DNA of 64,000 nucleotides from an uncultured Bacteroidales bacterium (GTDB taxonomy: Bacteria > Bacteroidota > Bacteroidia > Bacteroidales > UBA932), in NCBI GenBank assembly GCA_900316525.1, contig ONDF01000008.1, forward strand, positions 21,077-85,076, read 5' to 3'. The position numbers and the translations under genes were made by a program. A model generated the notes under the pieces. That model was not told where the DNA came from, did not search any database, and worked only from the letters and a program-made list of their open reading frames with translations. This document shows, one piece after another, positions 21,422-62,090 of the stretch. Each line of letters begins with the position of its first letter. The stretch's first letter is position 1.

Positions 21422-21439
21422 TCTAAAATGTGCCCGAAT

Positions 21440-24184: not shown

Positions 24185-24197
24185 ACCGGGAAACGCC

Positions 24198-45214: not shown

Positions 45215-45562
45215 TTAATTCTTCATCAGAATCTTGTCGATAGGTTTTCCTTTCGCGAGGTCATCGACAAGCTTGTCAAGAATCCGGAGGTCGCGCATGC
45301 GAGGATCCTCGATCTCCTCCACCCGAATGCCGCAAATCCTACCCTTCACCAGGAACCGGGCCGGATTCATCCTAGGCGCCTGATCCAGGAACTCCCCATA
45401 CGTAGCCGAATCGCTACTCAACAGGGCCCGCAACTCCTCCTCGGAATAGCCCGTAAGCCACCCCGTCACCGCAAAAACCTCCCCCTCCGTCCGCCCCTTC
45501 CTCACCGCCTTGGCGATGAGCAGGGGAAACACCTTGGAGAATTTCATTTCGAATATGTCCAT
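45215..45562 (-). CDS. DUF2200 family protein
   Basis: 115 aa. MKFSKVFPLLIAKAVRKGRTEGEV...WLTGY...PRMRDLRILDKLVDDLAKGKP fits the DUF2200 pattern as I recall it. Confidence 0.6.
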   Translation of the reverse strand: MDIFEMKFSKVFPLLIAKAVRKGRTEGEVFAVTGWLTGYSEEELRALLSSDSATYGEFLDQAPRMNPARFLVKGRICGIRVEEIEDPRMRDLRILDKLVDDLAKGKPIDKILMKN

Positions 45563-45601: not shown

Positions 45602-46732
45602 TCAGTGGGATAGTTTGGCTATGGCAGGAAGGAACTTTTCACAGGTCTCTTCCACCTCTTTGATGATGGTCCGACAAGTCGATTCGGGGATGCGAATATC
45701 TGTGCCGGCTTTCAGCACCAAGTCGAAGCCCGGATTTCCGTTATAAAAAAGGGATGTGGCATGCTCGCCATTCGAACCCAAGGGAGAATAGGTGATATCA
45801 TAGGCGGGAGCTAGGGACCATTTCCCGTCATCGCAGAGGAAAGAGAAGTTCTTTGCATGGTCATCTTTGTTGACGGCTACGAGGTTCATCACCATCCTGC
45901 GGAACATCTCTTCCACCTGGTCCGGATCCTGAGTCAAGAATCCGGTCAAGGCCAGCAGATTGGTGTAGTCGACATCCTGCTTGCGGAAATCTGTTTTCAG
46001 AAGCGCGGCGGCCGTCACGACATGCCGTTTCTTCCCATCGGGCGCAAAGTCGAACCTTTCGATGGCGAAGTATCGGTCTTTCACCAAGCCGATCCGGGGA
46101 ATCGTGATTCCACACGCGCGAGCCGTCTTCATATACAGGAATTCGCTCTTGCCGATGTCCTCCGGGTCATACACATGGCGGAACTTGACGAGCCAGTGTG
46201 AGCCATCTTGGTTCCTCAGGGCGGTTTTTGGTCGGGCTCCACCGGAATTGGCGCTATTATAATACAGATACGACTCGTCTCCGGCCCCTTTTTCCGCGAG
46301 TACCTTCAAGGCCTCTTCTTGCAGATTATCCAATTGCGCGATGTCTTCCAGTTCCTTTTGGGCATGGAACCCTGTCATCATGGGAAGGTAAGTCAATGCT
46401 CCCATTCCTGCCGTTCCAATGATTGAGAGGCGCTGCAGGGGATTCAACTCAATGAGCGAGGTGTTTTGTTTTCGGAGCATCCGGTCAAGCAGATACAAGC
46501 CGTAGCCGTCCGGGAGGCTGTCCTCAAAGACGGCAAATCCTCCTCCGAACTTGTCTTTGTCGGCATAGAAAAGACCGCTTTGCAGGGGAAGTTCAGTAGG
46601 GGATAGGGAAAAACCGTTGGCAAGCCAACCCTTGTCATATTCAAATACGCAGACGCCATTGGCCGGGTCCCTCTGCAAAGTACCTACGGGCTCGTCCCGG
46701 AGCAGGACATTGATTTTCTTGATATCAATCAT
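45602..46732 (-). CDS. hipA: type II toxin HipA-family Ser/Thr kinase
   Basis: N-terminal coupling domain (INVLLRDEPVGTL...) and a catalytic loop NKDDHAKNFSF. 4-bp overlap with the upstream HTH gene. Confidence 0.9.
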   Translation of the reverse strand: MIDIKKINVLLRDEPVGTLQRDPANGVCVFEYDKGWLANGFSLSPTELPLQSGLFYADKDKFGGGFAVFEDSLPDGYGLYLLDRMLRKQNTSLIELNPLQRLSIIGTAGMGALTYLPMMTGFHAQKELEDIAQLDNLQEEALKVLAEKGAGDESYLYYNSANSGGARPKTALRNQDGSHWLVKFRHVYDPEDIGKSEFLYMKTARACGITIPRIGLVKDRYFAIERFDFAPDGKKRHVVTAAALLKTDFRKQDVDYTNLLALTGFLTQDPDQVEEMFRRMVMNLVAVNKDDHAKNFSFLCDDGKWSLAPAYDITYSPLGSNGEHATSLFYNGNPGFDLVLKAGTDIRIPESTCRTIIKEVEETCEKFLPAIAKLSH

Positions 46733-47040
46733 CGGCCGTTCTTTCTATTCAAGTTCTTGTTGATCGCCTCGAGTTCCCGGGAGGTCGAGTACTTGGTGTG
46801 GTTGAGCAGTGCGGCCATCTCGTCGAAGTAATCAAATTCGATGACAAGCCGACAGAAGGCTTCCAGTGAAATCTTTCCTGTTCTTTCGAACCGCTCTATG
46901 GTCGGGGCGGGAATGCCGGTAAGACCGGAGAGTGTCTTCCTGCTATACCCCTTCTCCAACCGTCTCGCCCGGCAATTCTGGGCCAACCGGTCCAAAAGCA
47001 TTTGTGGGTTTCGAGTATAATTATCTAGCCGATATTCCAT
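46729..47040 (-). CDS. XRE-family HTH protein, HipB-like antitoxin
   Basis: RRLEKGYSRKTLSGLTGIPAPTIERFERTGKISLEAF is an XRE-type HTH. The gene is translationally coupled to hipA. Confidence 0.75.
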   Translation of the reverse strand: MEYRLDNYTRNPQMLLDRLAQNCRARRLEKGYSRKTLSGLTGIPAPTIERFERTGKISLEAFCRLVIEFDYFDEMAALLNHTKYSTSRELEAINKNLNRKNGR

Positions 47041-47059
47041 AATATAGTATTAAAAAAGC

Positions 47060-47067
47060 CAAAATTA
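47060..47067 (-). promoter_or_regulatory. -7 promoter box TAATTTTG (minus strand) for hipBA, next to an 11-bp palindrome ACATATTATGT (47078-47088)
   Basis: The reverse complement of caaaatta matches TAnnTTTG 20 nt upstream of the hipB-like start. The adjacent perfect palindrome is a possible operator. Confidence 0.4.
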
Positions 47068-47132
47068 TGGCGATATGACATATTATGTTATGCAAATATA
47101 GTAAATAATACTGACATAAGCAAGGTAACGTA

Positions 47133-47368
47133 CGGGAAGGTTGCCGGGCGGCGGGGCGGGCCTGCGGAATGACGGATTTCAGCTATTCGCGTAGGCGGGA
47201 AGGCGCTTGACCGCCGAACTCGCTCACTTAGTCCCGCAAGCGGGCCTAAGTAGCGCTCAAACAAACGGCGTCATCCCGTTCCGGGACCGCTGCCTTCCCG
47301 CCTGCTCACTAGCAGCTGAAATCCGGATTCCGCAGTCCCATCCCCGCCGCCACGATCGAACCTTCCCG
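47133..47368. repeat. long imperfect-palindrome (foldback) element, copy A, nested inside a 28-nt hairpin
   Basis: Nested inverted repeats run across 236 nt. The outer 18+10 nt are identical to the hairpin at 50189-50216, and the core 47161-47335 aligns with the reverse complement of 52345-52517. Confidence 0.85.
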
Positions 47369-47553
47369 AAAGGCCCATGAAAAGCGAGCGCGGACCAACC
47401 CGGCACCCACGCCTTCTATGGGCGCACGCCCCGCTTTAGGCCCATTCTAAGTGGCCTATAAAGCGGGCAAATGAGGCTCTCAGGCCGTAGAAAGGAAATT
47501 CTTCCGCGCTCGGTTTTTATGACGAGGGCGAGGGAGGGAAACAGGATTCAATG

Positions 47554-50118
47554 TTAGAACCCAATCTTCTTTCTCGGGGTGCGGTAGGTGGAGTTGAGGT
47601 TCACAAACTTGGTTTCGAGGTAGTCGCAGCCGTATTTCTCGTTGGAGCAGGCCAGGACGGAATAGGGATTGCCGTTGACGGCCTTGCCGGTCTTGACAAC
47701 CTTGATACGGCCGCAGTGGCATTTGGGGCAACGTTCCGGTTCCGGGATATCTGCGCTGGGCTTGATGTCCGGATTGAGGGTCGGGACAAACTCTAGAACA
47801 AACGGCGAAGGCTTGTTGATGTCATAAAGTACCCAAGTATGCTTCTTTGCCCGGGTGATGCCCACATAAAAAATGCGGCGCTCTTCGCTGAAAGCATAGG
47901 CGTCCGGTTCGCTGAGGACGTATTTGAGGATCGGACTGTCACTGATCTGAGAAGGGAATCCAATTACGCCGCTGTTGCAGTTAAGAAGAATCACGTAATC
48001 GCATTCGAGCCCCTTGGACTGATGGACAGTCATAAAATCCATCTTACGCCGACCATAACTAACGTAAACTTTATCCTTCGTGTCGTGAACCTTCAAGTCC
48101 GTGTTTTTAAGAACGTTCACGTCGAAATGATAGCGTCCTAACAAGAGAATCTCTTTGTCCGCAGGGATTTGATCTGCCAGATATTTGATGGTTTCAGCGA
48201 TGCTTTCATAGCCATCCGTTGACAAGAAATCAAGTTCCGTTTCCGCGTCAATACTGAAGGAACGGACACTTTTGACCGCTTGCTCCGGATTGGCAAGGAT
48301 GAACCGGGAAGATTCCTCGATCGCCGGCTCGCCAAATCGGTAGGTGGTTTCCATCAAGCATTTCTTGGTGAACCCGAAGAACTTTTCAAATTGCTTGAAG
48401 AGCGCCATATCACTCCCGGCAAATCGGTATATGGACTGCCAATCATCACCCACGCAGAACAACTTCGTGAGCGGTTTCTCGCGCCTGAGTGACTGTAGGA
48501 AGCGATACCTGTCCAAAGAGATGTCTTGGAACTCGTCGACCAGGATATAGTCATAGTCCGGCTTGTGCCCATGGTTGCACAAATCCGTCGCTTTGATGAT
48601 GGCGTCGGTAAAGTCTATCTCGTCAAACTCCTCTTCCAACTGCCGATACGCCTCCACATAGGGAGCAATGATTTCGTTAAGGATGAAACGATCGGGCCCC
48701 ATCGCGACTTTCTGACGGATATCATCCAAAGAAGCCCCTCTGGACTTCAAAAGGAAGATGAAAGATTTGAGCATCCCCAGGATGTTCTCCTCTTGCCGGA
48801 GCAATTCTCGGGAGACATCCTTGGATGTCGATTTGCTGAAGACTGCACCTAAATCCAGCAGCTGCTTCGAAAGCTTCTCAAAGACATCGCCGCGATGGAA
48901 ATCTGCGCTTGATGTCTCAATGAGAATCGTTCCGCGGTCGCTATGACATTTTCTTTTCCAACTTATTCCTTCCAGATATTCGATCTCATCGTAGAACGTG
49001 AACCACGGAGGGCAATGCCCATCTTCATTGACCGCAAAATGCTCCAGATAAACACGCTTCAGAGAGCCGTCCGGTCCATCGATGTAAATCGAGAAATCGG
49101 GTTTGTACTGCCGATAATTCGCATCCGCCGTATGGAACTCGTAGTTCTCTTCATAGCGGAACTTGACACCGCGCGACCCAAGAAAGTCACAGATTTGGCT
49201 CTCTTCATCCGACTTGCAGAAAACGGGCTTCCCATCCATATCCTTGAAAAAAGCCTGGATCCCTTGCTTCTGCCGATCGAGCATATAGGCCTCTCGAGAG
49301 GTATACTCGAACTGATCCTTCATCGTGTAACGGGACCGGATGATGTAATCGCCAATAGCTGTGCGGAAAGCCGGGCTCTTTTCGGACAATTTGTAATAAA
49401 CCTGCACCGGGAAGTCCTCGTCCGTAATCGAAGGCTTTTCCCCCGTGGCTTCGCCAATGATATCCAACGCCAGTTTATGGAAAGTCCGACACTTCAACTT
49501 TTTCTCCCCCAACCGCTCCGACAACGACTGCGCCGCCTTGCGGGTGAAAGTAATCAAAAGAATCTTCTCGGCCGGAACATGCTGCTTGTCGATGAGATAG
49601 CGCACCTTTCCCACCGTCGTCATTGTCTTCCCGCTCCCTGCACTACTGATTACCAGCACATTATCCTCCAGCGAAACCACCGCCTCCCGTTGCTGCGAAT
49701 CAAGCGGATAAGTCAACACCGTATCGAAATACTGCGCACAGGAAGAGAGCTGATTATCAACAAAATGACGATTATTGCTCTTCTTATGCTCCGTCGTGTC
49801 CGTCATCGCCGTGTGAAACCGACGGAACACATCCTTGTGCATAAACTCCTCAATCTCCTTACTATTGAGTACCGGTTGGACTTCCGAGTCTAAATCACGA
49901 TAATCCTCCAACAGGGACAATCGTTCGGTCTCGGTAATGTAGTGATTGAAATTGTATAGCGACTTGATCTCTGCAAACGCTTTTTCAACCTCCGGCTTCA
50001 ATCGGTTGAAGATTTCCAACCGCTCCTGACGCTTCTTCTCCTTGATCCGCGGCCGAACGGAAAGCATCAGCCAGAGGATGATGGCGAGAAAGGGGATTAT
50101 CAGGAGGAGCCAAAGCAT
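47554..50118 (-). CDS. HelD (helicase IV)-like UvrD/Rep-family SF1 helicase with N-terminal TM anchor and C-terminal C4 zinc ribbon
   Basis: Start set at MLWLLLIIPFLAIILWLML within ORF 47554..50223. Walker A SSAGSGKT, TFHKLA, Walker B LVDEFQDIS, VHQSKGLECDYVIL and YVGITRAK. Internal SDEESQICDFLGSRGVKFRYEENY...YKPDFSIY...YLEHF (helicase IV-type nuclease-like insert). C-terminal CPKCHCG...ACSNEKYGC. Confidence 0.85.
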   Translation of the reverse strand: MLWLLLIIPFLAIILWLMLSVRPRIKEKKRQERLEIFNRLKPEVEKAFAEIKSLYNFNHYITETERLSLLEDYRDLDSEVQPVLNSKEIEEFMHKDVFRRFHTAMTDTTEHKKSNNRHFVDNQLSSCAQYFDTVLTYPLDSQQREAVVSLEDNVLVISSAGSGKTMTTVGKVRYLIDKQHVPAEKILLITFTRKAAQSLSERLGEKKLKCRTFHKLALDIIGEATGEKPSITDEDFPVQVYYKLSEKSPAFRTAIGDYIIRSRYTMKDQFEYTSREAYMLDRQKQGIQAFFKDMDGKPVFCKSDEESQICDFLGSRGVKFRYEENYEFHTADANYRQYKPDFSIYIDGPDGSLKRVYLEHFAVNEDGHCPPWFTFYDEIEYLEGISWKRKCHSDRGTILIETSSADFHRGDVFEKLSKQLLDLGAVFSKSTSKDVSRELLRQEENILGMLKSFIFLLKSRGASLDDIRQKVAMGPDRFILNEIIAPYVEAYRQLEEEFDEIDFTDAIIKATDLCNHGHKPDYDYILVDEFQDISLDRYRFLQSLRREKPLTKLFCVGDDWQSIYRFAGSDMALFKQFEKFFGFTKKCLMETTYRFGEPAIEESSRFILANPEQAVKSVRSFSIDAETELDFLSTDGYESIAETIKYLADQIPADKEILLLGRYHFDVNVLKNTDLKVHDTKDKVYVSYGRRKMDFMTVHQSKGLECDYVILLNCNSGVIGFPSQISDSPILKYVLSEPDAYAFSEERRIFYVGITRAKKHTWVLYDINKPSPFVLEFVPTLNPDIKPSADIPEPERCPKCHCGRIKVVKTGKAVNGNPYSVLACSNEKYGCDYLETKFVNLNSTYRTPRKKIGF

Positions 50119-50188
50119 ATGTAAAGATAGTGATTTTGGATCCAAGAAAAGATTGCTACGCGGATAATGTCGATGTGCGGGGAAACCG

Positions 50189-50216
50189 CGGGAAGGTTGC
50201 CGGGCGAACCTTCCCG
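50189..50216. repeat. compact GC-rich hairpin (apparent empty site of element A) in the divergent intergenic region
   Basis: cgggaaggtt-gccgggcg-aaccttcccg: a 10-bp perfect stem with an 8-nt loop. Confidence 0.8.
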
Positions 50217-50234
50217 TAATCAATCTTTTTTTGC

Positions 50235-50242
50235 TATTTTTG
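50235..50242 (+). promoter_or_regulatory. -7 promoter box TATTTTTG for the DUF2075 gene
   Basis: Matches TAnnTTTG, 10 nt upstream of the ATG at 50253. Confidence 0.4.
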
Positions 50243-50252
50243 TAACGTCCCT

Positions 50253-52310
50253 ATGCCGCGTTACTATTATAGCGAATCGGTAGCCGAGTTTCTTGCTCGG
50301 CCGGCGGAGGCTATACTGGGGACCATGGATCAGGTGAATGAGTTTGACTTGACTATGGATCAGCGCAATGCGTGGTTGGAGGAGTTCGATATTATGAAGA
50401 GTGCGCTGGGAGCAATGGGGGAGGACGGTCAAATTCTGTTCGAATATACCATTCCGCGTCTAGGGAAACGAGTCGATGTTGTCCTCCTCATGAGGGGCGT
50501 GGTTTTCGCCATTGAGTTCAAGGTTGGTGCGGAGGCGTTCTTGGTCAATGACAAGGAGCAAGTCTGGGATTATGCGCTGGATTTAAAGAACTTCCACGAG
50601 GAGAGCCGAGATCGAGTCATCGTTCCAATTCTTGTGGCAACAGAGGCCCCCAAGCGGGATTGTTCGATGGGACAGGCCATCTTCAGCTATTACGATGACC
50701 ACGTCTATTATCCGCTATTCAGTAATGCGGATACACTGTTGCCCATCCTTCAGAGAGTCCTGAACGAAATAGATCCGCAACCGGCCTTGGACGCGCACGA
50801 ATGGACCTTCAGCCGGTATAGCCCGACTCCGACGATCATCCAAGCAGCATCTGCGCTGTATATGAATCACAGCGTTGCAGATATCACCAAGCATGAGGCT
50901 GATAAGGCTGGAATCGACAGCTGCACGGCGTTCATTTTGGACATTATCAAGCAATCGAAGGAAAACCACCAGAAGAGCATTTGCTTTGTGACCGGAGTTC
51001 CCGGCGCGGGGAAGACACTCGTCGGTTTAAACGTCGCAATTCAACAAGAAGAAGGCGATTTGGCGGTTTATCTTTCCGGTAACGGACCGCTTGTGAAAGT
51101 GCTTACCGAAGCTTTGGCTCGAGACAAGGTTCAGAAGGAGAAAGATCGCGGCCGCCGATGCACAAAGACCGAAGCAGAGCGTCAGGTAAGCCGATTTATC
51201 CAGATCATTCACCGCTACCGGGATAACATGCTGGGAAAGCTGAAGATGCCCATCCGAGACGGACAGATTGAACTTGATCCGGCAAAGATTTCCAAAGCGG
51301 CTGAAAAGAGCGCAGCGGAGGTGGAGAACGTAGCCATTTTCGACGAAGCGCAGCGAATGTGGGACATGCGCCATCTGAGTGCCTGGCTTGCCAGGAAGAA
51401 GGGCGTGAACGATTTCCCCATGTCGGAAGGAGAGTTCCTCATCTGGTCGCTTGACCAGCATAAAGACTGGGCCACCATCGTCTGCCTGGTGGGTGGGGGA
51501 CAGGAGATCAACTCTGGCGAAGGCGGTATTGGTTTGTGGATCGATGCGCTTAACCATCAGTTCCCCGACTGGCAGATTTACATCTCGAACCAATTGACGG
51601 AGAAGGAATATGCTGAAGGAAATGTCAGCGCCCTACTCGCAGAGAACCCCAACGTTCATCTCCGTTCTGACCTGCACCTTGCAGTCTCTCAGCGCTCTTA
51701 CCGGGCCGAGACACTTTCCTTATTTGTTCATCAATTCTTGGATCTGGATATCGCAGCCGCCCGAAAGACTTACGACGATATAAAAGACCGCTATCCCATT
51801 GTCCTCACTCGCGATTTAGCAAAGGCCAAAGCCTGGCTCCGAGAGCACGCGCGTGGCTCAGAGCGCTACGGAATGCTTGTCTCCTCCAAAGCTTTCCGCC
51901 TGAAGCCATTAGCCATTGATATTCGTTCTCAGGCCGATATTGTTCCCTGGTTCCTAAACCCTATCACGGACATTCGTTCTTCCCTCTTCCTGGAAGACGT
52001 CGCCACAGAATTCGATATCCAAGGCCTGGAACTCGACTGGACCTGCCTTGTCTGGGATGGCGACTTCCGCTACGATCCCTACCGCCACAGCTGGCAACAC
52101 TTCAACTTCCGCTCCGACCGTTGGCAAAACATCAACATTGCCGAAGGCCGCGCCTATCAACTCAACGCCTACCGCGTCCTCCTCACCTGCGCCCGTCAAG
52201 GCATGGTCATCTGCGTCCCTGAAGGAAACCCCGATGATGCCACTCGGTTGCCAGAGTTTTATGATGGGACGTATGAGTTGTTTAAGGAGTTGGGGTTGAG
52301 GGAGATTTAG
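50253..52310 (+). CDS. DUF2075-type protein: N-terminal PD-(D/E)xK-like nuclease module + SF1-like P-loop NTPase
   Basis: FEYTIPRLGKRVDVVLLMRGVVFAIEFKVG (D...ExK), Walker A GVPGAGKT and Walker B IFDEAQRMW, with a C-terminal helicase-like region. Confidence 0.8.
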   Translation: MPRYYYSESVAEFLARPAEAILGTMDQVNEFDLTMDQRNAWLEEFDIMKSALGAMGEDGQILFEYTIPRLGKRVDVVLLMRGVVFAIEFKVGAEAFLVNDKEQVWDYALDLKNFHEESRDRVIVPILVATEAPKRDCSMGQAIFSYYDDHVYYPLFSNADTLLPILQRVLNEIDPQPALDAHEWTFSRYSPTPTIIQAASALYMNHSVADITKHEADKAGIDSCTAFILDIIKQSKENHQKSICFVTGVPGAGKTLVGLNVAIQQEEGDLAVYLSGNGPLVKVLTEALARDKVQKEKDRGRRCTKTEAERQVSRFIQIIHRYRDNMLGKLKMPIRDGQIELDPAKISKAAEKSAAEVENVAIFDEAQRMWDMRHLSAWLARKKGVNDFPMSEGEFLIWSLDQHKDWATIVCLVGGGQEINSGEGGIGLWIDALNHQFPDWQIYISNQLTEKEYAEGNVSALLAENPNVHLRSDLHLAVSQRSYRAETLSLFVHQFLDLDIAAARKTYDDIKDRYPIVLTRDLAKAKAWLREHARGSERYGMLVSSKAFRLKPLAIDIRSQADIVPWFLNPITDIRSSLFLEDVATEFDIQGLELDWTCLVWDGDFRYDPYRHSWQHFNFRSDRWQNINIAEGRAYQLNAYRVLLTCARQGMVICVPEGNPDDATRLPEFYDGTYELFKELGLREI

Positions 52311-52314
52311 TTAG

Positions 52315-52547
52315 CTGTAACTCTTCGTCGGGGGCCGGTGTGCTCCTGCGGCATTCGGATTTCAGCGACAGGGGAGCAGGCGGGAAGGTGCGGTCCCGCA
52401 GGGATGACGCCGTTTGTTTGAGCGCTAGTTAGGCCCGCTTGCGGGACTAACTGAGCGAGTTTGGCGTCAAGCGCCTTCCCGCCTACGCGTACCGGCTGAA
52501 ATACGTCATGACGCAGGAGTGCACCGGCCCCCGGTGGGGGGTTACAG
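52315..52547. repeat. long imperfect-palindrome (foldback) element, copy B, inverted relative to copy A
   Basis: Outer stems ctgtaac/gttacag and cgggggccggtgtgctcctgcg/cgcaggagtgcaccggcccccg. The core 52345-52517 is the reverse complement of 47161-47335 with scattered substitutions. Confidence 0.85.
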
Positions 52548-52609
52548 CACTCTCTTTTCCTTTTTCTCGGTTTATTCTTGCGGGAATCATTTTATTTCGT
52601 AACTTTGTC

Positions 52610-52680
52610 ATTGTCATACGATGTGACAATTTTATTGCACTTCAAAGGCATCTCAGCCCATGTGAGATGCCTTTTCTATT
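52610..52680 (+). ncRNA. candidate small RNA (two hairpins, second is an intrinsic terminator)
   Basis: TAACTTTG -7 box at 52600-52607, hairpin attgtca-N7-tgacaat (52610-52630), then an 11-bp stem aaggcatctca/tgagatgcctt (52645-52673) followed by ttctatt. This could instead simply be the distal terminator of the DUF2075 transcript. Confidence 0.3.
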
Positions 52681-52752
52681 CGAAAGAGAGCCAGAGGGGA
52701 TGTAGTCTTCAAGCCGCCAGATTGCGTTTCACAAGCAATAAAATATCATCGT

Positions 52753-52916
52753 ATGAAACGAAACTGCACATCTAAAGCCGGCATGCAACTTCAAGCAGAA
52801 GTCAGAGTGCCCGTCCTTGTTCGAGTGAAATCGCATACGCGAAATCAATCGGGCAAGACAGTGAAGGTCCGTTCGTATTTCAGACGTACATGGGACACGC
52901 CTGGGATTACGATTAG
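52753..52916 (+). CDS. possible 54-aa highly basic small protein
   Basis: ATG..TAG ORF read by eye (MKRNCTSKAGMQLQAEVRVPVLVRVKSHTRNQSGKTVKVRSYFRRTWDTPGITIR). It is below the ORF-track length cutoff and is followed by a UUCG-loop hairpin at 52961-52982. No homology support. Confidence 0.2.
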
Positions 52917-53006: not shown

Positions 53007-53263
53007 GAGATGCCCGATCGGGTCGGGCATGACGGAGGCATCAGGTCGGGTCTGACGGGTCTGGCCGCGTTTACGCGAAATCGGCGTTTGGGAGGCTTCT
53101 GGGTGTAAACGCGGAGGGAGGAATGGCGGTTTTGGGCCAAAAGGGTGCCGCGTTTACACGTGGGGGGCTATGTGGGGCGGTTTTTCTGTAAACGCGTCCG
53201 GCAGACAACGCGAGATGCCCGATCAGGTCGGGCATGACGGTGGGGAACAGGTCGGGCATGACG
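53007..53263. repeat. cluster of REP-like palindromic repeats
   Basis: gagatgcccgatc(g/a)ggtcgggcatgacgg at 53007-53035 and 53212-53240, half-copies at 53042-53058 and 53248-53263, and two hairpin units gccgcgtttac(g/a)cg...gtaaacgcg (53064-53114, 53147-53196) between them. Confidence 0.7.
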
Positions 53264-53381
53264 TCCGCGGGCGGTCGGGCGGGGCGGTATCAGCCGGGCG
53301 GGGCGCTGATACTAATTTGACATTTTCTTGTAATATTTTGCTTCCCCGTAGGGGAACTTGTTGATTTCACAAAAAATTAAT

Positions 53382-54011: not shown

Positions 54012-54076
54012 TCCGACAGCGTTTGCAAAACCAAACCAAACCAAATACAAACCAATCAACCAATCAATCAACAACC

Positions 54077-57000
54077 ATGATTAAAATGAGAAAACTGTCT
54101 CAGCTGTTCGGACTGCTGGCGGCGCTTCTGCTCCTGCTTCCCGGACAGTCTTTCGCCCAGACCCTGCGCGTACAAGGCCAGGTGCTGGATGAGCTGGGAG
54201 AAGGTTTGATCGGAGCGGGCGTGGTCATACAAGGGACCACGACCGGAACGATCACCGACATGGACGGTAACTTCTCGCTGACCGTGCCCCAGGGGGCCAC
54301 GCTCGAGTTCTCGTGTGTGGGCTACAAGACCCTGGCGATCCCGGCGACGGCGAGGATGACTGTCAACATGGAACCCGACGCCGATGCCCTGGACGAGTCC
54401 GTGGTCATCGCGTACGGCCAGCAGAAGAAAGTGACCATCACCGGTGCGGTTTCGGCCGTGAGCGGTGAGGGACTGATGAAGTCCCCGGTGCCGAACGTCG
54501 CGAACGCCCTGCAGGGTAACCTCCCCGGCGTGTCCGCCGTGCAGCCTTCGGGTATGCCGGGCGCCGATGAACCCGTCATCCGCATCCGCGGTGTCGGATC
54601 CCTGAACAGCGCTGAGCCGCTCGTCCTCGTGGACGGCGTCGAGCGTTCCTTCTCGCAGCTGGATGCCAACGAAATCGAGAGCATCTCCGTCCTGAAGGAC
54701 GCGTCCGCGACCGCCGTGTTCGGTGTCCGCGGCGCGAACGGCGTCATCCTCGTGACCACCAAGCGCGGTTCTGTGGGCAAGGCCTCCGTGACCGCTTCCG
54801 CCAATGCCGCCGTGCAGACGATCTCGAAGTTCATCGACTTCGCCGATTCCTACACCTACGGCAAGATGTGGAACTACACCGCCATCACCGATGCGCTGCC
54901 GATGACCCAGTGGCCGGCCTCCCCGACCATCGCCGACTACACCCCGTACGCCGACACCGGCATCCGGTTCACCCAGGACGTCATGGAGCACTTCCGCCTG
55001 AACGACATGCCCCGCACGTTCCCGAACATGGACTGGATCAAGTACATCATGAACGACGCCGCGTGGCAGGAACAGGCCAATGTGAACGTGAACGGCGGTA
55101 CCGAGCGCGTCCGCTACTTCGTGTCCGCCGGCTTCCTGAACCAGGACTCCCTGTTCAAGACCTTCTCGGACAACAAGAACGAGACCTTCAACTTCCAGCG
55201 ACTGAACTACCGCGCGAACCTCGACATCGAGGTCTCCAAGCGCAGCCAGCTGTCCATCACCCTCGGCGGCCGTATGCAGAACCGCAACACGATGGGTGGC
55301 GGTGAAGGCTTCCTGTTCCGTTACCTGCAGGGCGCGACGCCCTACGCCGGCAGCGGTATCGACGAGGAAGGCCGCCACATCATCGCCGACGAGACCATCG
55401 TCGGCCAGTTCGACCGCGACGCCCTCGACAACTACTACGACCTCGGATACCAGCTTGAAAGCACCAACGTGCTGAACTTCGACATCCAGTACAAGCTGGA
55501 CATGGGCTTCCTCACCCAGGGTCTCGACTTCAAGGTGAAGGCCTCCTACAACTCCGAGTACACCGCCCGCAAGAACCGCCAGAACGGCTACGGCAACGGC
55601 GTGAAGTACGTCGCCACCCTCGTGGACGGCAAGGAAGTCCTCCGCAAGGAGAACATCACCTGGCCGCTTCCGTACAGCGAGGCCAAGTGGGGCAGCCGCA
55701 ACTGGTACACCGAAGCCAGCCTCAACTACAACCGCCGCTTCGGCAAGCACAACGTGGGCGCCCTCCTGCTCTACAACCAGAGCAAGACCTACTACCCGTG
55801 GGACTCCAACAACAGCCTGTACCAGTCCATCCCGAAGGGCTACGTCGGCCTCGTCGGCCGCGTCACCTACGACTACGACACCAAGTACCTGCTGGACTTC
55901 AACATCGGCCGCAACGGTTCCGAGAACTTCGCCCCCGGCAAGCGCTACGGCACCTTCCCGTCCGTCTCCCTGGGCTGGATCCCCTCCATGGAACCCTGGT
56001 GGCAGCCCATCGGCAACGTCATTTCCTACCTGAAGCTCCGCGGCTCCTACGGTATCGTCGGTAACGACAACACCAACGGCGCCCGCTTCCTGTACCTGCC
56101 CGGCGCCTGGCAGTTCTACACCGGCGCCACCACCGTGAACCCGCAGAACCGCGGCGCCAACTTCGGTACCTCCGGCGGCTGGCTGCAGGCCGTCAAGGAG
56201 CTCACCACCGGCAACCCGAACGTGACCTGGGAGACCGCGACGAAGATCAACGTCGGCGCCGACGTCACCTTCTTCAGCCGCCTCCACGCCTATGTGGACT
56301 TCTTCTGGGAGGACCGCAAGGATATCCTCGTGTCCAACGCCAACGCCCTCTCCGCCGTCACCTCGCTGCCCGCCAGCTACGTGAACCAGGGCCGCGTGAA
56401 GAACCACGGCTTCGAGGTCACCCTGAACTGGGAGGACCGCATCGGCAACGTCCATTACAACATCTCCCCGAACGTCTCCTTCGCCCGCAACCAGGTCATC
56501 GAGATGCTCGAGGTTCCGCCGATGTACGACTACCTGAGCCGCACCGGCCTCCCAGTGGGCCAGCGCTTCGGCTATGAGCTGTTCGAGTTCTACCAGCCCG
56601 GCACCGAAGACCGCTACCAGGACGCCTACGGCAAGCCGATGCCCGACCAGAACATCGACCTCCGCTATGGCGACTGCGTCTATGTGGACCTCAACGACGA
56701 CGGCATCATCGACCAGAACGACCAGCACCCGATCGGCTACACCGACAACCCGGAACTGACGTTCTCCCTGAACACCGGCATCCACTACAAGGGCCTCGAC
56801 TTCTCGATGCTGTGGACCGGCGCCGACCACGTGAGCCGCACCCTGAACGGCTACTTCCGCGACCAGTTCGGTTCCACGAACACCTCGGCCCTCACCCAGT
56901 GGGTCGCCGACAATTCCTGGACCACCGACAATCCGGACGCCACCCTGCCGCGTATCTCCTTCACCAACCGCGTGCACAACAACCGCGACTCCCAGGCGTG

Positions 57001-57235
57001 GATGATCAACTCCCGGTACGTCCGTCTGAAGAACGTCGAGCTCGGCTACACCTTCAACAAGCCCAAGTTCATGCCATTCTTCAACTACATCCGCGTCTTC
57101 GCCTCCGGCCAGAACCTCCTGACCTTCTCCACGTTCGACGGCAACGACCCGGAAGCCCCGGGCTCCGGCCTCGACTTCGGCGTGCGCTACCCGATGACCC
57201 GCGTCGTCAACATGGGCGTGCAAGTTAACTTCTAA
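54077..57235 (+). CDS. SusC/RagA-type TonB-dependent transporter (full length)
   Basis: True start MIKMRKLSQLFGLLAALLLLLPGQSFAQ lies within ORF 53684..57235. LRVQGQVLDELGEGLIGAGVVIQGTTTGTITDMDGNFSL, VVIAYGQQKK and IRGVGS...LVLVDGVER...VFGVRGANGVILVTTKRG. Paralogue of 16397..19579. Confidence 0.95.
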   Translation: MIKMRKLSQLFGLLAALLLLLPGQSFAQTLRVQGQVLDELGEGLIGAGVVIQGTTTGTITDMDGNFSLTVPQGATLEFSCVGYKTLAIPATARMTVNMEPDADALDESVVIAYGQQKKVTITGAVSAVSGEGLMKSPVPNVANALQGNLPGVSAVQPSGMPGADEPVIRIRGVGSLNSAEPLVLVDGVERSFSQLDANEIESISVLKDASATAVFGVRGANGVILVTTKRGSVGKASVTASANAAVQTISKFIDFADSYTYGKMWNYTAITDALPMTQWPASPTIADYTPYADTGIRFTQDVMEHFRLNDMPRTFPNMDWIKYIMNDAAWQEQANVNVNGGTERVRYFVSAGFLNQDSLFKTFSDNKNETFNFQRLNYRANLDIEVSKRSQLSITLGGRMQNRNTMGGGEGFLFRYLQGATPYAGSGIDEEGRHIIADETIVGQFDRDALDNYYDLGYQLESTNVLNFDIQYKLDMGFLTQGLDFKVKASYNSEYTARKNRQNGYGNGVKYVATLVDGKEVLRKENITWPLPYSEAKWGSRNWYTEASLNYNRRFGKHNVGALLLYNQSKTYYPWDSNNSLYQSIPKGYVGLVGRVTYDYDTKYLLDFNIGRNGSENFAPGKRYGTFPSVSLGWIPSMEPWWQPIGNVISYLKLRGSYGIVGNDNTNGARFLYLPGAWQFYTGATTVNPQNRGANFGTSGGWLQAVKELTTGNPNVTWETATKINVGADVTFFSRLHAYVDFFWEDRKDILVSNANALSAVTSLPASYVNQGRVKNHGFEVTLNWEDRIGNVHYNISPNVSFARNQVIEMLEVPPMYDYLSRTGLPVGQRFGYELFEFYQPGTEDRYQDAYGKPMPDQNIDLRYGDCVYVDLNDDGIIDQNDQHPIGYTDNPELTFSLNTGIHYKGLDFSMLWTGADHVSRTLNGYFRDQFGSTNTSALTQWVADNSWTTDNPDATLPRISFTNRVHNNRDSQAWMINSRYVRLKNVELGYTFNKPKFMPFFNYIRVFASGQNLLTFSTFDGNDPEAPGSGLDFGVRYPMTRVVNMGVQVNF

Positions 57236-57247
57236 TGCGGAACGAAT

Positions 57248-59248
57248 ATGAAAAAGATATCGAATCTCATCCTGGTGCTGGGCATCGCGTCCGCTTTCTG
57301 CTTCTCCGCGTGCGTCGACAAGTTCGCCGTCGGTGACGCCTTCCTCGAGAAGGCCCCGGGCGTGGACGTCAACATCGACACCGTGTTCACGAGCGCAGAA
57401 TACACCCGCAATTTCCTGTGGAGCGCCTATGGCCAGCTCTACTGCACCTATACGTCCGGAAACATGATGAACGGCGCGCCGATCGACGTGCTTTCCGACT
57501 CCTATCATTGCTACGTCTCCTGGGGCGGCCCCAAGCAGAGCTACTACCCGGGACTTCTGACCGAGGACGCCCAGGATACCGAGAACGGCAACTTCCAGGG
57601 CAAGTTCTCCTACTCCACCAAGACCGGCGGCCTGAACGCCGACGCCGGCGGCCGCGTCTCCATCTACGAGACTGTGCGCAAGTGCTGGCAGATCATCAAC
57701 AACATCGAGCGCGTGCCCGACATGTCCGACACCGAGAAGAGCCGTCTCCGCGGCGAGGCCTACACCATCATGGCCAGCCGTTACTATGACGCGTTCCGCA
57801 GCTTCGGCGGCCTCTGCCTTGCCCGCAAGGACTACGAGGTGGGCGAGAACCACACCTCCGGCCGCGCCACCGCGATGGAGACCGTCGAGTTCATCGACTC
57901 CCTGATCGTGTGCGCGATCAACGAGCCCGGCTTCGTGTGGAACATCTCCAACGCCGACCAGGGCCAGTGGTCCGGCCGCCTCACCCGCGCCTCCGCCCGC
58001 GCCCTGCGCGCCAAGGTGTGGATGTTCGCCGCCTCCCCGCTGTTCAACAACAAGGAGCCCTATATGGAGTACTCCGCCGACAAGGTGACCGAGTTCACCA
58101 ACATCGAGCACGTGTGGTTCGGCAAGGAGGATCCCACCCTGTGGAACCGCTGCCTCCAATACTGCGAGGACTTCTTCAATGACAACGCCGCGAACGGCAA
58201 CTACTACGCGCTGGTCCAGCCTACTTCGCAGGACGAGGCCGGTTACCGCCGGGCCTTCCGCCGCGGCTACCGTTACCGCAACGATGCGACCAACCACGAG
58301 AAGCTGTTCGACGCCCACCCGACCCTCACCCTGTCCGACGGCGGCTATGGCTGGGGCTGGAGAGGCTTCGCCCTCGACTGCCTCCGCCAGGGCGGCGCCG
58401 TGCCGACCAACGAGCTGATGGAATGCTTCGGCATGGCCGACGGCCGCAACTTCCCGTACGAGAACCTCTACGGCGCCGGCAAGAACCCGCAGGGGATCGA
58501 CATCTTCGCCGACCGTGACCCGCGCCTGTACGAGACCATCCTGGTTCCCCGCCACAACCTGCCCTCCGGCTTCGACTATGCCGGTAACTCCTACATGGAC
58601 AACTGGGTGGGCGGCGCCTTCGAGTACAACAGCAACTTCGGCAACAAGGACGATGTCGCCTCCGGCTACTGCAAGTTCAAGTGGCTGCTCGACTACTACG
58701 GCGGCAACCGCTATGACGACGAGTACATCGGCGTGCCTTACATCCGCCTGGCCGAGATGTACCTCATCCGCGCCGAGGCCAAGGCCGAGACCGGCGACCT
58801 CCGGGGCGCCCTGGACGACATCCACGTCGTGCGCAGCCGCGTCGGCCTGGGCCGTCTGGAAGTGATGAACCCGCAGCTGAACCTCACCACGAACAAGGAG
58901 AACCTGATCAACGAGATCCTCCGCGAGCGCAACTGCGAGATTGGCGCCGAGTGTGGCGACCGCCTTTACGACATGGTCCGCCGCAAGCGTCAGGACCTGT
59001 TCACCAAGCCGCTCCACGAGATCCGCATCTATCGCCTCGACGCCAATGGCAACCGCCTGACCGAAGGAAACCAGAGCTGGGATCCTGCCACGCCTTGGCC
59101 CAAGTTCGAGTATGAGAAGCCCCAGATCGTCAACGGCGCCCGCCGCTGGTGGGAGCCCGGCTTCTGGACGAACAAGTGGTATCTGGACCCGGTGTCCCGT
59201 ATCGAAGTGCAGAAGGGGTACGGCCTCACGCAGAACCCCGGTTGGTAA
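57248..59248 (+). CDS. SusD/RagB family lipoprotein
   Basis: Lipobox CFSACV. C-terminal WYLDPVSRIEVQKGYGLTQNPGW. Confidence 0.9.
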   Translation: MKKISNLILVLGIASAFCFSACVDKFAVGDAFLEKAPGVDVNIDTVFTSAEYTRNFLWSAYGQLYCTYTSGNMMNGAPIDVLSDSYHCYVSWGGPKQSYYPGLLTEDAQDTENGNFQGKFSYSTKTGGLNADAGGRVSIYETVRKCWQIINNIERVPDMSDTEKSRLRGEAYTIMASRYYDAFRSFGGLCLARKDYEVGENHTSGRATAMETVEFIDSLIVCAINEPGFVWNISNADQGQWSGRLTRASARALRAKVWMFAASPLFNNKEPYMEYSADKVTEFTNIEHVWFGKEDPTLWNRCLQYCEDFFNDNAANGNYYALVQPTSQDEAGYRRAFRRGYRYRNDATNHEKLFDAHPTLTLSDGGYGWGWRGFALDCLRQGGAVPTNELMECFGMADGRNFPYENLYGAGKNPQGIDIFADRDPRLYETILVPRHNLPSGFDYAGNSYMDNWVGGAFEYNSNFGNKDDVASGYCKFKWLLDYYGGNRYDDEYIGVPYIRLAEMYLIRAEAKAETGDLRGALDDIHVVRSRVGLGRLEVMNPQLNLTTNKENLINEILRERNCEIGAECGDRLYDMVRRKRQDLFTKPLHEIRIYRLDANGNRLTEGNQSWDPATPWPKFEYEKPQIVNGARRWWEPGFWTNKWYLDPVSRIEVQKGYGLTQNPGW

Positions 59249-59267
59249 TCTATAACACTGTACGAAT

Positions 59268-62090
59268 ATGAAATTACGCAATATACTTATAATCAGCCTG
59301 TTGGGATTCTGCGCGGCTCCGTTTGCCGCCCACGCCCAGATCGCGCTGCCCGACAAGAAGGCGCAGACGGTGGATTTGGGCTACGGCGTCGAGCAGTCTG
59401 AATTCCTGACGACGGCGGCGACCTACACCATCACCGCCGAAGAGCTGCGCCGCACGTCGGCCATCAGCCTCGCCGACGCGCTCTATGGCAAGCTCCTGGG
59501 CCTGAACGCCTTCCAGAACACCGGCTTCAAGGGCGAGGAAGGCCGCGGCGCGAGCTTCAACATCCGCGGCGCCCAGACCACCGGCGAGACCGACATCCTC
59601 ATCCTGGTCGACGGCCAGGAGCGTCCGATCGACCGCCTTTCCGTGGAGGAAGTGGAGAGCGTGACCGTCCTCCGCGACGCCGCCGCCGTGGCCCTGTACG
59701 GCCACGAAGGCATCAACGGCGTCCTCCTCGTGAAGACCAAGCGCGGCGTCGCCGACAGCGGTTTCCACATCAAGGTCGGCGCGTCCCGCAAGATCCAGTT
59801 CGACCCCTACAAGGCCCCGATGGTGGGCGAGTATGACTGCCTTCCTTCGATTGCGCGCGAACCCGCGCAGATGTATGCCTATGCGCTGAATGTTGCCCGC
59901 GCGAACGACGGCCTCGCCGCCGCCTATTCCGCCGACGAGGTCCGGAAGTTCCGCGACGGCACCGACCCGTACGTGTACCCGGACATCGACTGGAAGAACG
60001 AGGTGTTCAAGAACACCGCCAGCGAGACGAACGGTTTCATCTCGATGTACGGCGGTTCCGACAAGGTGGAATACTACACCCAGCTCGACTACACCGACGC
60101 CAGCGGCCTGTACAAGAACCCCGACCAGGGCGATTGGAACTCCCAGCTGCGCTACTCCAAGGCGAACATCCGCACGAACGTGGACTTCCAGGTGACCAGC
60201 ACCACGAAGGTCCGCACGAACATCTTCGCCCTGTTCATGGAGACCAACGGCGTTCCGAACATCAACTCCAACGACGCCTGGTGGCATCTGTACAAGGTGC
60301 CGGCCCTCGCGTTCCCGATCAAGACCTATGGCGACATCTGGGGCGGCAGCCAGACCTACGGCGACTTCAACCTCGTCGCCAAGGCGACCGGCACCGGCTT
60401 CACCAAGACCCACCAGCGCCAGATCTGGGCCGACCTGACCCTCATCCAGGACCTCGACTTCATCCTGGAAGGCCTGAAGTTCTACGCCGGCGGCGCCTAC
60501 GACAACGCCTCCAACACCATCGAGAACCGCCGCAAGGGCTACCAGTACGGCTGGAACTGGTATGACGCGAACAACGTCATGCAGGAGACCGTGATGGGTA
60601 CCGTGGAGGACAAGCTCGTGTTCAACTACTATGTGGATTCCCAGTGGCGTGTGGGCACGGTCAACACCGGCTTCCAGTATGCGACCCAGTTCGGCAACGG
60701 CGACCACTTCTCCGCCAATGCCGGCTACAACATGAAGAGCGAGATCCGCGACGAACGGAGCCACACCTGGTACCGCGCCAACTGGACCCTCGCCACGCAC
60801 TATGACCACGCCGACCGGTTCATGTGGGATCTCGTCCTCGCCGCGAACGGTTCCAACCGTTCCTACCCGGCGAAGTGGGCGTTCTCCCCGACCACGGCCT
60901 TCGGTTTCATCTATGCCAACGACCCCGACGCGAACTTCCTGAACTACGGTAAGCTCCGTCTCTCCGCCGGTATCCAGCACACGGACTACGTTCCCGCGAA
61001 CGGCCTGTGGCTCGACCGCTGGGACGCCTCCCACGGCCAGTTCTGGTATGGCGAGAAGTTCGGCAACTCCTGGGGCGCCTTCCTGACCCAGTTCCCGACC
61101 AAGGACTTCCGCCAGGAAGCGGCCTACAAGGCCAATCTGGGTACGGACGTGCGGATCGCGAACAGCCTTGACGTCACCGTCGACGCATTCTATCAGCAGC
61201 GCCGGAACATCCTCGTGAGCGCAGGCTCCCTGAACTCCGAGGTCGTGGGTATCCAGTCCTCCTATGACGACAAGGGCCGCGTGGCCAGCTACGGCGTGGA
61301 AGCCGGCCTGCGTTACGCGAAGACCTTCGCCAACGGGCTCAGCCTCTTCGCCGGCGCCAACGGCTCCTTCGTGAAGAGCAAGATCCTCGAGTGGATCGAG
61401 ACCCCGGCTTATCCGAACCTCTCCGTCATCGGCACGCCCGCCGACGCCGCGCGCGGCCTCGTCTCCCTGGGCTTCTTCCAGAACCAGGCGGAGATCGAGT
61501 CCAGCCCGCTGCAGGAGTTCGGCCAGGTCAAGGTCGGTGACATCAAGTACAAGGATGTCAACGGAGACGGCGTCATCAACGAGAACGACGCTGTCGCGAT
61601 GGATTGGGGCCAGGCCTTCCCGGCCCTGAACTACGGCTTCAACCTGGGCTTCGAATACAAGGGCTTCGGCATGAACGCCTACTTCCAGGGCGCCGCCCTC
61701 CAGACCAAGAACATCATGTATGTGGACGGTGTTTGGGGCGCCCTCTCCGACAACCGGGGCCTCTCTTCCGAGTACTACAACAACTGCTTCGACATCCTGG
61801 GCGCGGACGCCATCTATCCGCGCATGTCCACCACGAGCGTGGCCAACAACAACCGGGCTTCCACCACTTGGTTCCGCACGGTCCAGTGGCTCAAGCTGCG
61901 CGACTGCGAGGTCTATTACCGGATCCCCGCTTCCGTGCTCGGCCGCGTGAAGGTCTCGGATGCGAAACTGTTCGTCCAGGGCCAGAACCTGCTGTCCTTC
62001 GACAATGTCCCCGCCATGGATGCCGAGAACCTGAACACGGGCTATCCCGTGATGAAGGCGGTCAACATGGGCCTTTCTGTGATCTTCTAA
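59268..62090 (+). CDS. SusC-like TonB-dependent transporter, short form lacking the CarboxypepD_reg-like domain
   Basis: The signal peptide is followed directly by the plug (TVDLGYGVEQSE...ILILVDGQERP...LRDAAAVALYGHEGINGVLLVKTKRG). Paralogue of 21440..24184. Confidence 0.9.
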   Translation: MKLRNILIISLLGFCAAPFAAHAQIALPDKKAQTVDLGYGVEQSEFLTTAATYTITAEELRRTSAISLADALYGKLLGLNAFQNTGFKGEEGRGASFNIRGAQTTGETDILILVDGQERPIDRLSVEEVESVTVLRDAAAVALYGHEGINGVLLVKTKRGVADSGFHIKVGASRKIQFDPYKAPMVGEYDCLPSIAREPAQMYAYALNVARANDGLAAAYSADEVRKFRDGTDPYVYPDIDWKNEVFKNTASETNGFISMYGGSDKVEYYTQLDYTDASGLYKNPDQGDWNSQLRYSKANIRTNVDFQVTSTTKVRTNIFALFMETNGVPNINSNDAWWHLYKVPALAFPIKTYGDIWGGSQTYGDFNLVAKATGTGFTKTHQRQIWADLTLIQDLDFILEGLKFYAGGAYDNASNTIENRRKGYQYGWNWYDANNVMQETVMGTVEDKLVFNYYVDSQWRVGTVNTGFQYATQFGNGDHFSANAGYNMKSEIRDERSHTWYRANWTLATHYDHADRFMWDLVLAANGSNRSYPAKWAFSPTTAFGFIYANDPDANFLNYGKLRLSAGIQHTDYVPANGLWLDRWDASHGQFWYGEKFGNSWGAFLTQFPTKDFRQEAAYKANLGTDVRIANSLDVTVDAFYQQRRNILVSAGSLNSEVVGIQSSYDDKGRVASYGVEAGLRYAKTFANGLSLFAGANGSFVKSKILEWIETPAYPNLSVIGTPADAARGLVSLGFFQNQAEIESSPLQEFGQVKVGDIKYKDVNGDGVINENDAVAMDWGQAFPALNYGFNLGFEYKGFGMNAYFQGAALQTKNIMYVDGVWGALSDNRGLSSEYYNNCFDILGADAIYPRMSTTSVANNNRASTTWFRTVQWLKLRDCEVYYRIPASVLGRVKVSDAKLFVQGQNLLSFDNVPAMDAENLNTGYPVMKAVNMGLSVIF

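Follow-up and report, generated by a model that had tools for sequence, protein, structure and literature searches.

Large imperfect palindromes between genes have been described in several bacteria. The ERIC (or IRU) elements of enterobacteria and the Correia elements (CREE) of Neisseria measure 100–250 bp, form hairpins in mRNA, and act in an orientation-dependent manner. Correia elements bind RNase III and change the expression of neighboring genes (PMC2649163; reviewed with other MITEs, or miniature inverted-repeat transposable elements, in PMC10969869). In Tn916, the terminator at one end has an insulator function (PMC11658703), and a 246-bp interrupted palindrome in lacZ of the Escherichia coli chromosome is a substrate for SbcCD cleavage and stimulates recombination (PMC3315005, PMC4245961). 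The element considered here is a large palindromic repeat with two inverted copies, A and B, in a 64-kb stretch of DNA from an uncultured Bacteroidales bacterium (contig ONDF01000008.1, positions 21,077 to 85,076), which was analyzed at its full length and is called the window below. Between the two copies lies a divergent gene pair that encodes a UvrD-like helicase and a DUF2075/PDC-S41 helicase; the island has no other genes in the window.

By analogy, the element appears to work most like large palindromic intergenic repeats (ERIC, Correia) and the terminator-insulators of mobile-element ends, and its cassette-like context resembles that of the attC sites of integrons. ERIC and Correia elements are dispersed, high-copy, and have conserved terminal repeats, whereas the present element is low-copy, is found only at defense-island borders with the same strand outward, occurs in left and right types, and has variable termini around a conserved interior. 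As in Tn916, a hairpin lies at the edge of acquired DNA, where it would separate the transcription of that DNA from that of the host (PMC11658703). In contrast to Tn916, the stem is ~100 bp long and contains a three-way junction, both edges carry the hairpin in inverted orientation, and many islands with unrelated cargo are bounded in this way.

The analysis revealed a low-copy palindrome family that marks the borders of variable defense islands, and of modules within them, with fixed polarity. In the favored interpretation, which is of middling confidence, A (of the A-type) forms the left border and B (of the B-type) the right border of an anti-phage island, and both serve as crossover points and as outward, terminator-like hairpins; the island itself would be small and horizontally acquired, and the chromosome that carries it would be that of a high-GC rumen Bacteroidales. 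Border hairpins of this kind were not found described in the literature searched. The family matches none in Rfam (nothing reached the gathering score anywhere in the window, nor E ≤ 1 within 46900-52800), and the plasmid, phage, and viral collections searched gave no match either.

Structure and Conservation of the Hairpin

The sequence-only reading had reported that a foldback element beside the UvrD-like gene recurs as an inverted copy after the DUF2075 gene, and this was borne out by blastn, in which A and B were 85.0% identical over 193 nt. A repeat search of the window resolved the similarity into three pairs of inverted arms, namely 47212-47277/52401-52466 (66 nt, 95%), 47188-47211/52466-52489 (24 nt, 100%), and 47293-47351/52330-52388 (59 nt, 76%). 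The palindromes of both copies extended past the shared core recognized by that reading (Table 1). The core 23-mer occurred exactly twice in the window, where none was expected from 100 shuffles. The B palindrome begins 3 nt downstream of the DUF2075 stop codon (52308-52310), and 185 nt lie between the end of A and the stop codon of the UvrD-like gene (47554-47556).

Folded as a single strand, the imperfect palindrome (~236 bp) forms a ~100-bp stem that is topped by an apical hairpin and has a further hairpin at its side. For the strand present in the neighboring mRNA, the minimum free energy (MFE) of the RNA was -155.9 kcal/mol for A and -157.5 kcal/mol for B, with z-scores of -10.7 and -11.9, respectively, and 0 of 200 shuffles were as stable. 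Only one arm carries the side hairpin and an internal loop of 10 nt (TCAAACAAAC on the model strand), which gives the element its polarity.

Relatives were collected in several searches. A first genome scan with the pattern GGCGGGAAGG-N(75-100)-CCTTCCCGCC was too permissive, and only four of the 120 matches listed were true relatives, all in metagenome-assembled genomes (MAGs) of ruminant-gut Bacteroidales (RUG253, RUG352, RUG13040, and RGIG10215 among the matches listed). The other matches listed were unrelated GC-rich palindromes from Polyangiales, Gemmatimonadota, Streptomyces, and Marinobacter. A metagenome search with a 20-mer conserved in all six copies then known returned 85 loci, and a profile search yielded 103 copies, including 54 of full length and 47 that were non-redundant. 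Beyond the window, true relatives came only from the ruminant-gut MAGs and from these loci of rumen-type metagenomes. Forward profile scores were far above reverse scores, and the orientation of the copies is thus well defined. Many of these loci are related, so that the counts given below are not independent events, and the gene calls in the metagenome loci are greedy open reading frame (ORF) calls that include some spurious ORFs.

The copies were 235–250 nt long, with a highly conserved interior and with termini that were the most variable part. The outermost 25–40 bp of the stem occurred in at least four types (A, B, C, and D), which were unlike in sequence and each self-complementary; the apical hairpin had at least three versions, and outer, inner, and apical parts were found in mixed combinations. 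The TCAAACAAAC loop and the side hairpin were strictly conserved, and 18 of the 23 positions of the core 23-mer were invariant across the 47 copies, although the 20-mer used as the metagenome query lies inside this core and its conservation in the metagenome copies was forced by the search.

When the structure of copy A was imposed on the 47 non-redundant copies, 28 of 92 pairs showed changes on both sides. The covariation score was 0.139, compared with 0.071 in shuffled controls (0 of 500 reached the observed score) and 0.03–0.06 when the partners were slid by 1–3 columns; it was measured on a MAFFT alignment in which some outer-stem columns are misaligned between types, and it probably understates the true covariation. 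The compensatory swap between C47227-G47250 in A and G52428-C52451 in B, already pointed out in the sequence-only reading, is correct as read directly from the sequence. Both of its states recurred among the remaining copies, with L132:10671-10948 as an uncompensated intermediate. The description of the outer stems of B as self-complementary holds in general, but the pairing is not perfectly Watson–Crick, with two G·T/T·G wobbles on the + strand. Covariation above both the shuffled and the slid controls, together with the existence of at least four self-complementary outer-stem types, supports the earlier suggestion that selection acts on the fold beyond the sequence. Covariation alone does not separate RNA from DNA, because template switching in palindromes also gives compensated arms.

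Association with Variable Defense Islands

Ten contigs carried several copies that bracket several kb of DNA (the window, L128, L132, L205, L206, M142, M171, L169, M181, and L177; M142 was merged from L142+L192, M171 from L171+L178, and M181 from L181+L196). All ten read model(+)...model(-), and none read (-,+). Random orientation, which the sequence-only reading had named as the behavior of an ordinary MITE, was not observed; one and the same strand faced outward in every bracketing pair. The pairs were heterotypic wherever both copies could be typed, being either A/B or D/C combinations.

The DNA between the copies comprised 2–14.5 kb of defense genes that differed among loci. The cargo classes were restriction-modification of types I, II, and IV, McrBC-like, Wadjet-like, AbiO/Nhi-like, AIPR, and ApeA. 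Among the individual genes, Vsr occurred together with McrBC-like genes and a C5 methyltransferase, and there were also type I restriction-modification genes and a type IV methyl-directed restriction enzyme. Other cargo consisted of a JetC-like DUF3584 protein with DUF7281, SLFN-g3 helicases (AbiO/Nhi/PDC-S41), and AIPR, Z1, ApeA-HEPN, PLD, HNH, helicase-DUF2726 fusion, and SLFN AlbA_2 proteins, and several cargo proteins were without a Pfam or PADLOC match. Recurrent island proteins of 256–461 aa without a Pfam match (L176:1847-3232, L164:5578-6867, L146:719-1549, L131:1474-2244, and L125:5614-6540) are, by their position between hairpins, candidates for defense functions.

In the window, the bracketed segment has a GC content of 49–53%, compared with 60–65% in the flanks, which points to acquired DNA. 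To the right of B lies non-coding DNA followed by SusC/SusD genes, and since such genes flank the island, the host is a Bacteroidota chromosome. Islands of the C/D type were flanked on the outside by genes that include RelB, ORF6N, and LPD3, and farther away by an ADP-ribosylglycohydrolase, NUDIX/NrtR, and a BNR protein. An integrative conjugative element or conjugative transposon was considered as the context and rejected, because the farther flanks are ordinary chromosomal genes and the window is flanked by SusC/SusD loci.

Homology among loci ends at the bases of the hairpins. One common outside flank was shared by 18 of the 25 B-type copies, yet these copies had 12 different inside flanks, and one A-type inside flank was paired with three different outside flanks. 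The clearest comparison is with contig M142, which contains the same island as the window, with both flanks in common and a DUF2075 gene that is 94% identical. The helicase adjoining A in this contig (2726-5596) is only 27% identical to the UvrD-like helicase of the window and lies in the opposite orientation. In addition, a 6.8-kb Wadjet-like module is located between the DUF2075 stop codon and B, and the DUF2075 gene there has its own small terminator. B therefore abuts DUF2075 in the window through a local junction and not through linkage. In two further contigs (L110 and L172), the UvrD-like gene is reduced to a 3′ remnant.

Strand Asymmetry

The strand read from the inside to the outside of an island was the more stable in 42 of the 47 copies, with a mean difference of 11.6 kcal/mol. 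Across these copies the outward strand had 354 G·U pairs compared with 150 on the other strand, and it retains G·U wobbles at places that are A·C mismatches on the opposite strand. In the type consensuses, the ratio of G·U to A·C on the outward strand was 11:1 for B, 4:0 for A, and 5:1 for C (20:2 in total), and within a run of seven adjacent outer-stem pairs of B, five form wobbles on the + strand, whereas the - strand has mismatches there. Private single-copy changes were symmetric (36:33), which disfavors pure mutation bias. DNA energy parameters showed the same asymmetry (-89.3 vs. -72.9 kcal/mol); because it appears with both RNA and DNA parameters, a folded single strand is favored, and RNA and single-stranded DNA are not separated by it.

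The flanks of the outward strand were T-rich (0.40) and A-poor (0.15) in copies with a clean base at ~235–245 nt; elsewhere, the flanks were paired together in the MFE fold. The B hairpin is followed by CTCTTTTCCTTTTTCTC, with a T/C-rich tract immediately beyond the hairpin and a small terminator-like hairpin at 52650-52676. The stem of the element is about five times the usual length of an intrinsic terminator, and the standard terminator scan, which counts at most 20 pairs, cannot score stems of ~100 bp. A sigma-70 scan detected no promoter-like site inside either hairpin. A promoter in the hairpin was also rejected on inspection, since the conserved loop GTTTGTTTGA is by eye one mismatch from the Bacteroides -7 box with no -33 TTTG at the right distance.

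These features bear on the strongest alternative, in which the element is purely a giant hairpin of the 3′ untranslated region (3′-UTR) that acts on RNA as a terminator, insulator, or mRNA stabilizer, and its border position is a by-product of gene travel. This explanation is rather unlikely. It is consistent with the covariation of the arms, the wobble ratio of the B consensus, and the T/C-rich tract past the hairpin on the outward strand. Furthermore, B-type copies were tail-on to the inside gene in 24 of 29 cases, and both genes of the window read into the better-folding strand, so that both mRNAs would carry the element in the same sense, as the sequence-only reading had predicted. In contrast, A-type copies had no 3′-end bias (11 of 25 with the gene directed toward the copy, and 14 away), and in three contigs (L110, L144, and L206) the A copy lies 22–23 nt upstream of the DUF2075 start codon. 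The element also stays at the border while the adjoining gene changes, and so is not carried along by any one gene; internal copies degenerate through deletion, and the asymmetry is retained with DNA parameters. An RNA 3′-end role would fit the B-type copies and the window, but not every A-type copy. The earlier proposal of a 3′-UTR element that follows helicase genes is thus only partly supported; the association is with island borders rather than with particular genes, and as a general description of a 3′-UTR element it fails.

Rearrangements Centered on the Element

Single modules bounded by direct copies were found within several islands. These included A′-AAA_14/DUF4143-A in L172 and L110, A′-helicase/nuclease-A in L132, and B-SLFN/AlbA_2-B in L205, with the same pattern in L128 and L177. 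The inner copies were decayed, often by deletion of the palindrome center or down to a 19-nt stub, whereas the border copies were intact. One copy (L144:3140-3373) was flipped in place relative to its counterpart (L110:408-667), with the same flanks and outermost stems and with the inner ~190 nt inverted; this was seen once among ~50 copies. Two possible A/B hybrids (L161:9440-9636 and L200:1-208), both cut by contig ends, are what a crossover between A and B, that is, an inversion of the whole island, would possibly produce.

The engineered 246-bp palindrome of E. coli lacZ has nearly the same size as the present element, which is natural and located at island borders. In E. coli, hairpins formed during replication are cleaved, leading to RecA-dependent repair and rearrangement (PMC3315005, PMC4245961). 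By analogy, hairpin cleavage of the SbcCD type could explain the breakpoints, the central deletions, and the flip.

The attC sites of integrons are a second point of comparison. Each is found at the 3′ end of a cassette, many cassettes encode defense systems, and the direct-copy modules described here resemble such cassettes. Like attC, the element is an imperfect palindrome in which structure is kept more than sequence and one strand folds better. However, no IntI or attI lies nearby, the units are multi-gene, the host belongs to Bacteroidales, and attC measures 57–141 nt compared with 235–250 nt here. The attC box consensus R″/L″/L′/R′ is RYYYAAC ... GTTRRRY, and it was not matched by the ends of A (CGGGAAGGTT/AACCTTCCCG) or of B (GCTGTAAC/GTTACAGC). 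A true attC site was thus rejected on the grounds of the missing integrase, size, and box consensus, and of the inverted border copies, only some internal modules being direct.

Two related explanations involve recombination sites. In one, which is doubtful, the hairpins are the recombination sites of a Bacteroidales defense cassette platform that is integron-like but lacks the integron integrase. A specific folded strand would be recognized by a putative recombinase or by nucleases that process hairpins, and one-hairpin modules would be inserted and excised beside the borders; both the flip in place and the central deletions of internal copies would then count as by-products. The other, which is improbable, is a structure-specific recombination site, whose folded strand is recognized by a putative recombinase or nuclease that moves defense modules, analogous to attC or to flipping hairpin termini. 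Several features agree with the latter, namely the structure that is kept while the outer stems vary, the strict conservation of the features that give polarity (TCAAACAAAC loop and side hairpin), the better folding of one strand, the direct copies around single modules, the new or variable modules that adjoin elements, and the single flip in place. On the other hand, no integrase, transposase, or recombinase was found in ~100 kb of cargo or in the flanking genes, except for an IS110-family element that interrupts the repeat itself. No tyrosine recombinase was detected among the genes called within 10 kb on either side of DUF2075, or among ~40 cargo and flank proteins scanned against Pfam. The border copies of an island are inverted relative to each other and do not share one orientation, and RecA-dependent recombination between 240-bp repeats can yield everything observed.

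Relation to Mobile Elements

The interrupting element mentioned above is a 1.83-kb insertion sequence (IS) of the IS110 family (DEDD_Tnp_IS110 + Transposase_20), which was present at the same site in a B-type and in an A-type copy. The site reads ...AACT/CGCTCAG..., where the slash marks the insertion point, with a CT core at both junctions, and the two IS copies are 94.7% identical. They encode a 331-aa protein and contain ~490 nt of 5′ non-coding DNA, in which two ~40-nt repeats hold GAACT and GACG(G/C)C segments that match the target. From their sequence, these repeats might resemble the guide loops of a bridge RNA. IS110 elements are RNA-guided, and repeats are often their targets (PMC11208160, PMC12288879). 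The use of one precise site with a CT core matches IS621 and ISPpu9 in REP sequences (PMC11208160, PMC12288879), although REPs are 20–40 nt long and very numerous, whereas the target here is a 240-nt low-copy element. The possibility that the hairpin represents the two ends of a 1.8-kb insert, that is, a MITE with its parent, was rejected, because the insert is an IS110 element with CT cores at the same internal site in both copies.

It is also very improbable that the hairpins are ordinary selfish MITEs, or the terminal inverted repeats of a composite transposon, without host function, in which the pairing of the arms results from transposase-binding repeats or template-switch correction. The element is palindromic, has a MITE-like size, and breaks assemblies (~30% of metagenome matches were at contig ends), and pairs of MITEs that flank cargo are known. 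It is furthermore a target of the IS110 family, as REP and other repeats are (PMC11208160). Nevertheless, conservation is lowest at its termini and highest in its interior, opposite to the pattern of transposase-bound repeats, and no target-site duplication was visible at the bases of the hairpins, whether in A, in B, or in the aligned copies. The density is low, with 1–2 matches per contig of 56–419 kb and two copies in the 64-kb window, and 18 of the 25 B-type copies lie at one and the same chromosomal flank. No autonomous parent with such ends was found, the 1.8-kb insert being the IS110 element inside the repeat, a family without ends of this kind. The strand-specific wobble pattern is also unexpected from DNA-only processes. 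The variable termini and the lack of a target duplication and of a parent thus set the element apart from MITEs, and a composite transposon or long terminal repeats were rejected because of the absence of a transposase from the cargo and the outside flank shared by most B-type copies. REP/BIME sequences with RAYT were likewise rejected, since the unit is ~240 nt rather than 20–40 nt, is low-copy rather than present in hundreds, and no Y1 (HUH) transposase was seen. Chance or an assembly artefact, such as fold-back chimeras, is negligible, as only the general tendency of palindromes to cause artefacts speaks for it, while the element recurs inside long contigs of independent ENA, JGI, and NCBI assemblies and has z-scores of -11 to -12.

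Proposed Role at Island Borders

We infer that the conserved copies at the island borders act as crossover points for the gain, loss, and swap of defense modules. Three routes may be envisaged. Homologous recombination could occur between copies in incoming and resident DNA; circles with one copy could integrate by a single crossover, leaving direct repeats around single modules; and breaks could be provoked by hairpin formation, since a palindrome of such size is expected to cause breaks and recombination (PMC3315005, PMC4245961). At the RNA level, transcripts leaving the island would read the best-folding strand and finish with a hairpin of very large size, after which comes a U/C-rich tract. 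Such a hairpin would be predicted to terminate or insulate transcription and to protect the 3′ end.

Several points weigh against this interpretation. A stem of ~100 bp far exceeds the needs of a terminator, and since each of the two strands already has a folding energy of about -140 kcal/mol or better, selection for a further 10–25 kcal/mol is puzzling. Placement between divergent genes or just upstream of a gene is frequent among A-type copies (14 of 25), and no outward island transcript passes through these. The wobble asymmetry is strong only in the B-type, in which private changes lean the same way (26:15), and a transcription-linked C-to-T bias could contribute to the B-type wobbles. The constant (+,-) arrangement may have been inherited from one or two ancestral islands rather than repeatedly selected. 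Homologous recombination gives the same pattern with any conserved flank, which leaves the palindromic shape unexplained, and the cargo (~100 kb) and flanking genes contained no recombinase. Finally, the low copy number was judged on contigs of 56–419 kb.

Neighboring Genes and Other Features

The coordinates of the hairpins, of the genes around them, and of the individual copies discussed above are listed in Table 1.

Table 1. Features of the hairpin pair, its surroundings in the window, and altered copies in related contigs. Positions without a contig name refer to the window.
Feature	Position	Strand	Remark
HIRAN	44729-45184		A-side outside flank
DUF2200	45215-45562		A-side outside flank
hipA	45602-46732		Beyond the 103-aa ORF on the A side
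103-aa ORF	46729-47040	-	Outside flank on the A side; no Pfam match
Copy A plus short flank	47111-47372		Conserved unit
Copy A, A-type border hairpin	47133-47368	Family model on +; better-folding outward strand -	Palindrome extent
Core 23-mer GCGTAGGCGGGAAGGCGCTTGAC	47189-47211	+	Second copy at 52466-52488 on the - strand; same letters in A and B
Asymmetric part that gives polarity	47255-47291	+	Internal loop TCAAACAAAC and side hairpin TCCCGTTCCGGGA, one arm only
Spacer from A to UvrD-like stop codon	47369-47553		First ~20 nt common to several A-type copies (inside-flank cluster I0)
Cargo gene 1, UvrD-like SF1 helicase	47554-50223	-	GajB-like in PADLOC
Cargo gene 2, SLFN-g3/DUF2075 helicase	50253-52310	+	PADLOC candidate system PDC-S41, E = 2.6e-261
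Copy B, B-type border hairpin	52314-52548	Family model on -; outward strand +	Palindrome extent
Outermost stem of copy B			GCTGTAAC.../...GTTACAGC
Conserved outside flank of B	52549-52680		Flank cluster O0, in 18/25 B-type copies
Decayed inner copies	L132:7742-7860; L172:5765-5900; L110:2188-2206		
IS110-family insertion	L133:2905-4735		In a B-type copy
IS110-family insertion	L184:3862-5690		In an A-type copy

The hipA module on the A side (window 45602-47040) varied among loci. It was absent in L110 (2197-2621) and M142 (L142:1574-2296), where the 103-aa upstream ORF was kept, and it was found on the opposite side of DUF2200 in L163:1356-3272. A second family of small, palindromic, REP-like repeats (GAGATGCCCGATCGGGTCGGGCATGACGG and variants) occurred several times to the right of B (window 53007-53279), and repeats of this type were also located directly beside B-type copies elsewhere (L089:1950-1995 and L133:2780-2810). 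Two very long ORFs antisense to SusC/SusD-type genes, 54068-59356 (-) and 16421-24250 (-), with 1762 and 2609 aa, respectively, are almost certainly artefacts of the high GC content and not genes.

In the first genome scan, dozens of loci came from a few MAGs, namely Polyangiales La6_concoct.130 and La1_metabat2.022 (L009, L012, L020, L047, L064, L070, and others) and Gammaproteobacteria S139 (L007, L016, L023, and others). The GGCGGGAAGG...CCTTCCCGCC palindromes of Polyangiales and S139, with the two sequences 75–100 nt apart, had no blastn similarity to the element, and these loci may represent other palindromic repeat families that share the 10-mer by chance.

Implications

Because its wobbles are strand-specific, the element offers a natural setting in which RNA-level and DNA-level selection on a long palindrome might be told apart, and the precise IS110 target within it is a natural bridge-recombinase site that would be of use for tools. 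If the proposed role is true, a facing pair of A-type and B-type hairpins would be a simple signature of a swap-prone defense locus in abundant, uncultured rumen Bacteroidales. Such a signature would allow known and as yet uncharacterized defense genes to be harvested from metagenomes, as attC does for integron cassettes. The fast turnover of defense islands at fixed hotspots is poorly understood, and these elements suggest that recombination at palindromic borders and hairpin-induced breaks may contribute to it.

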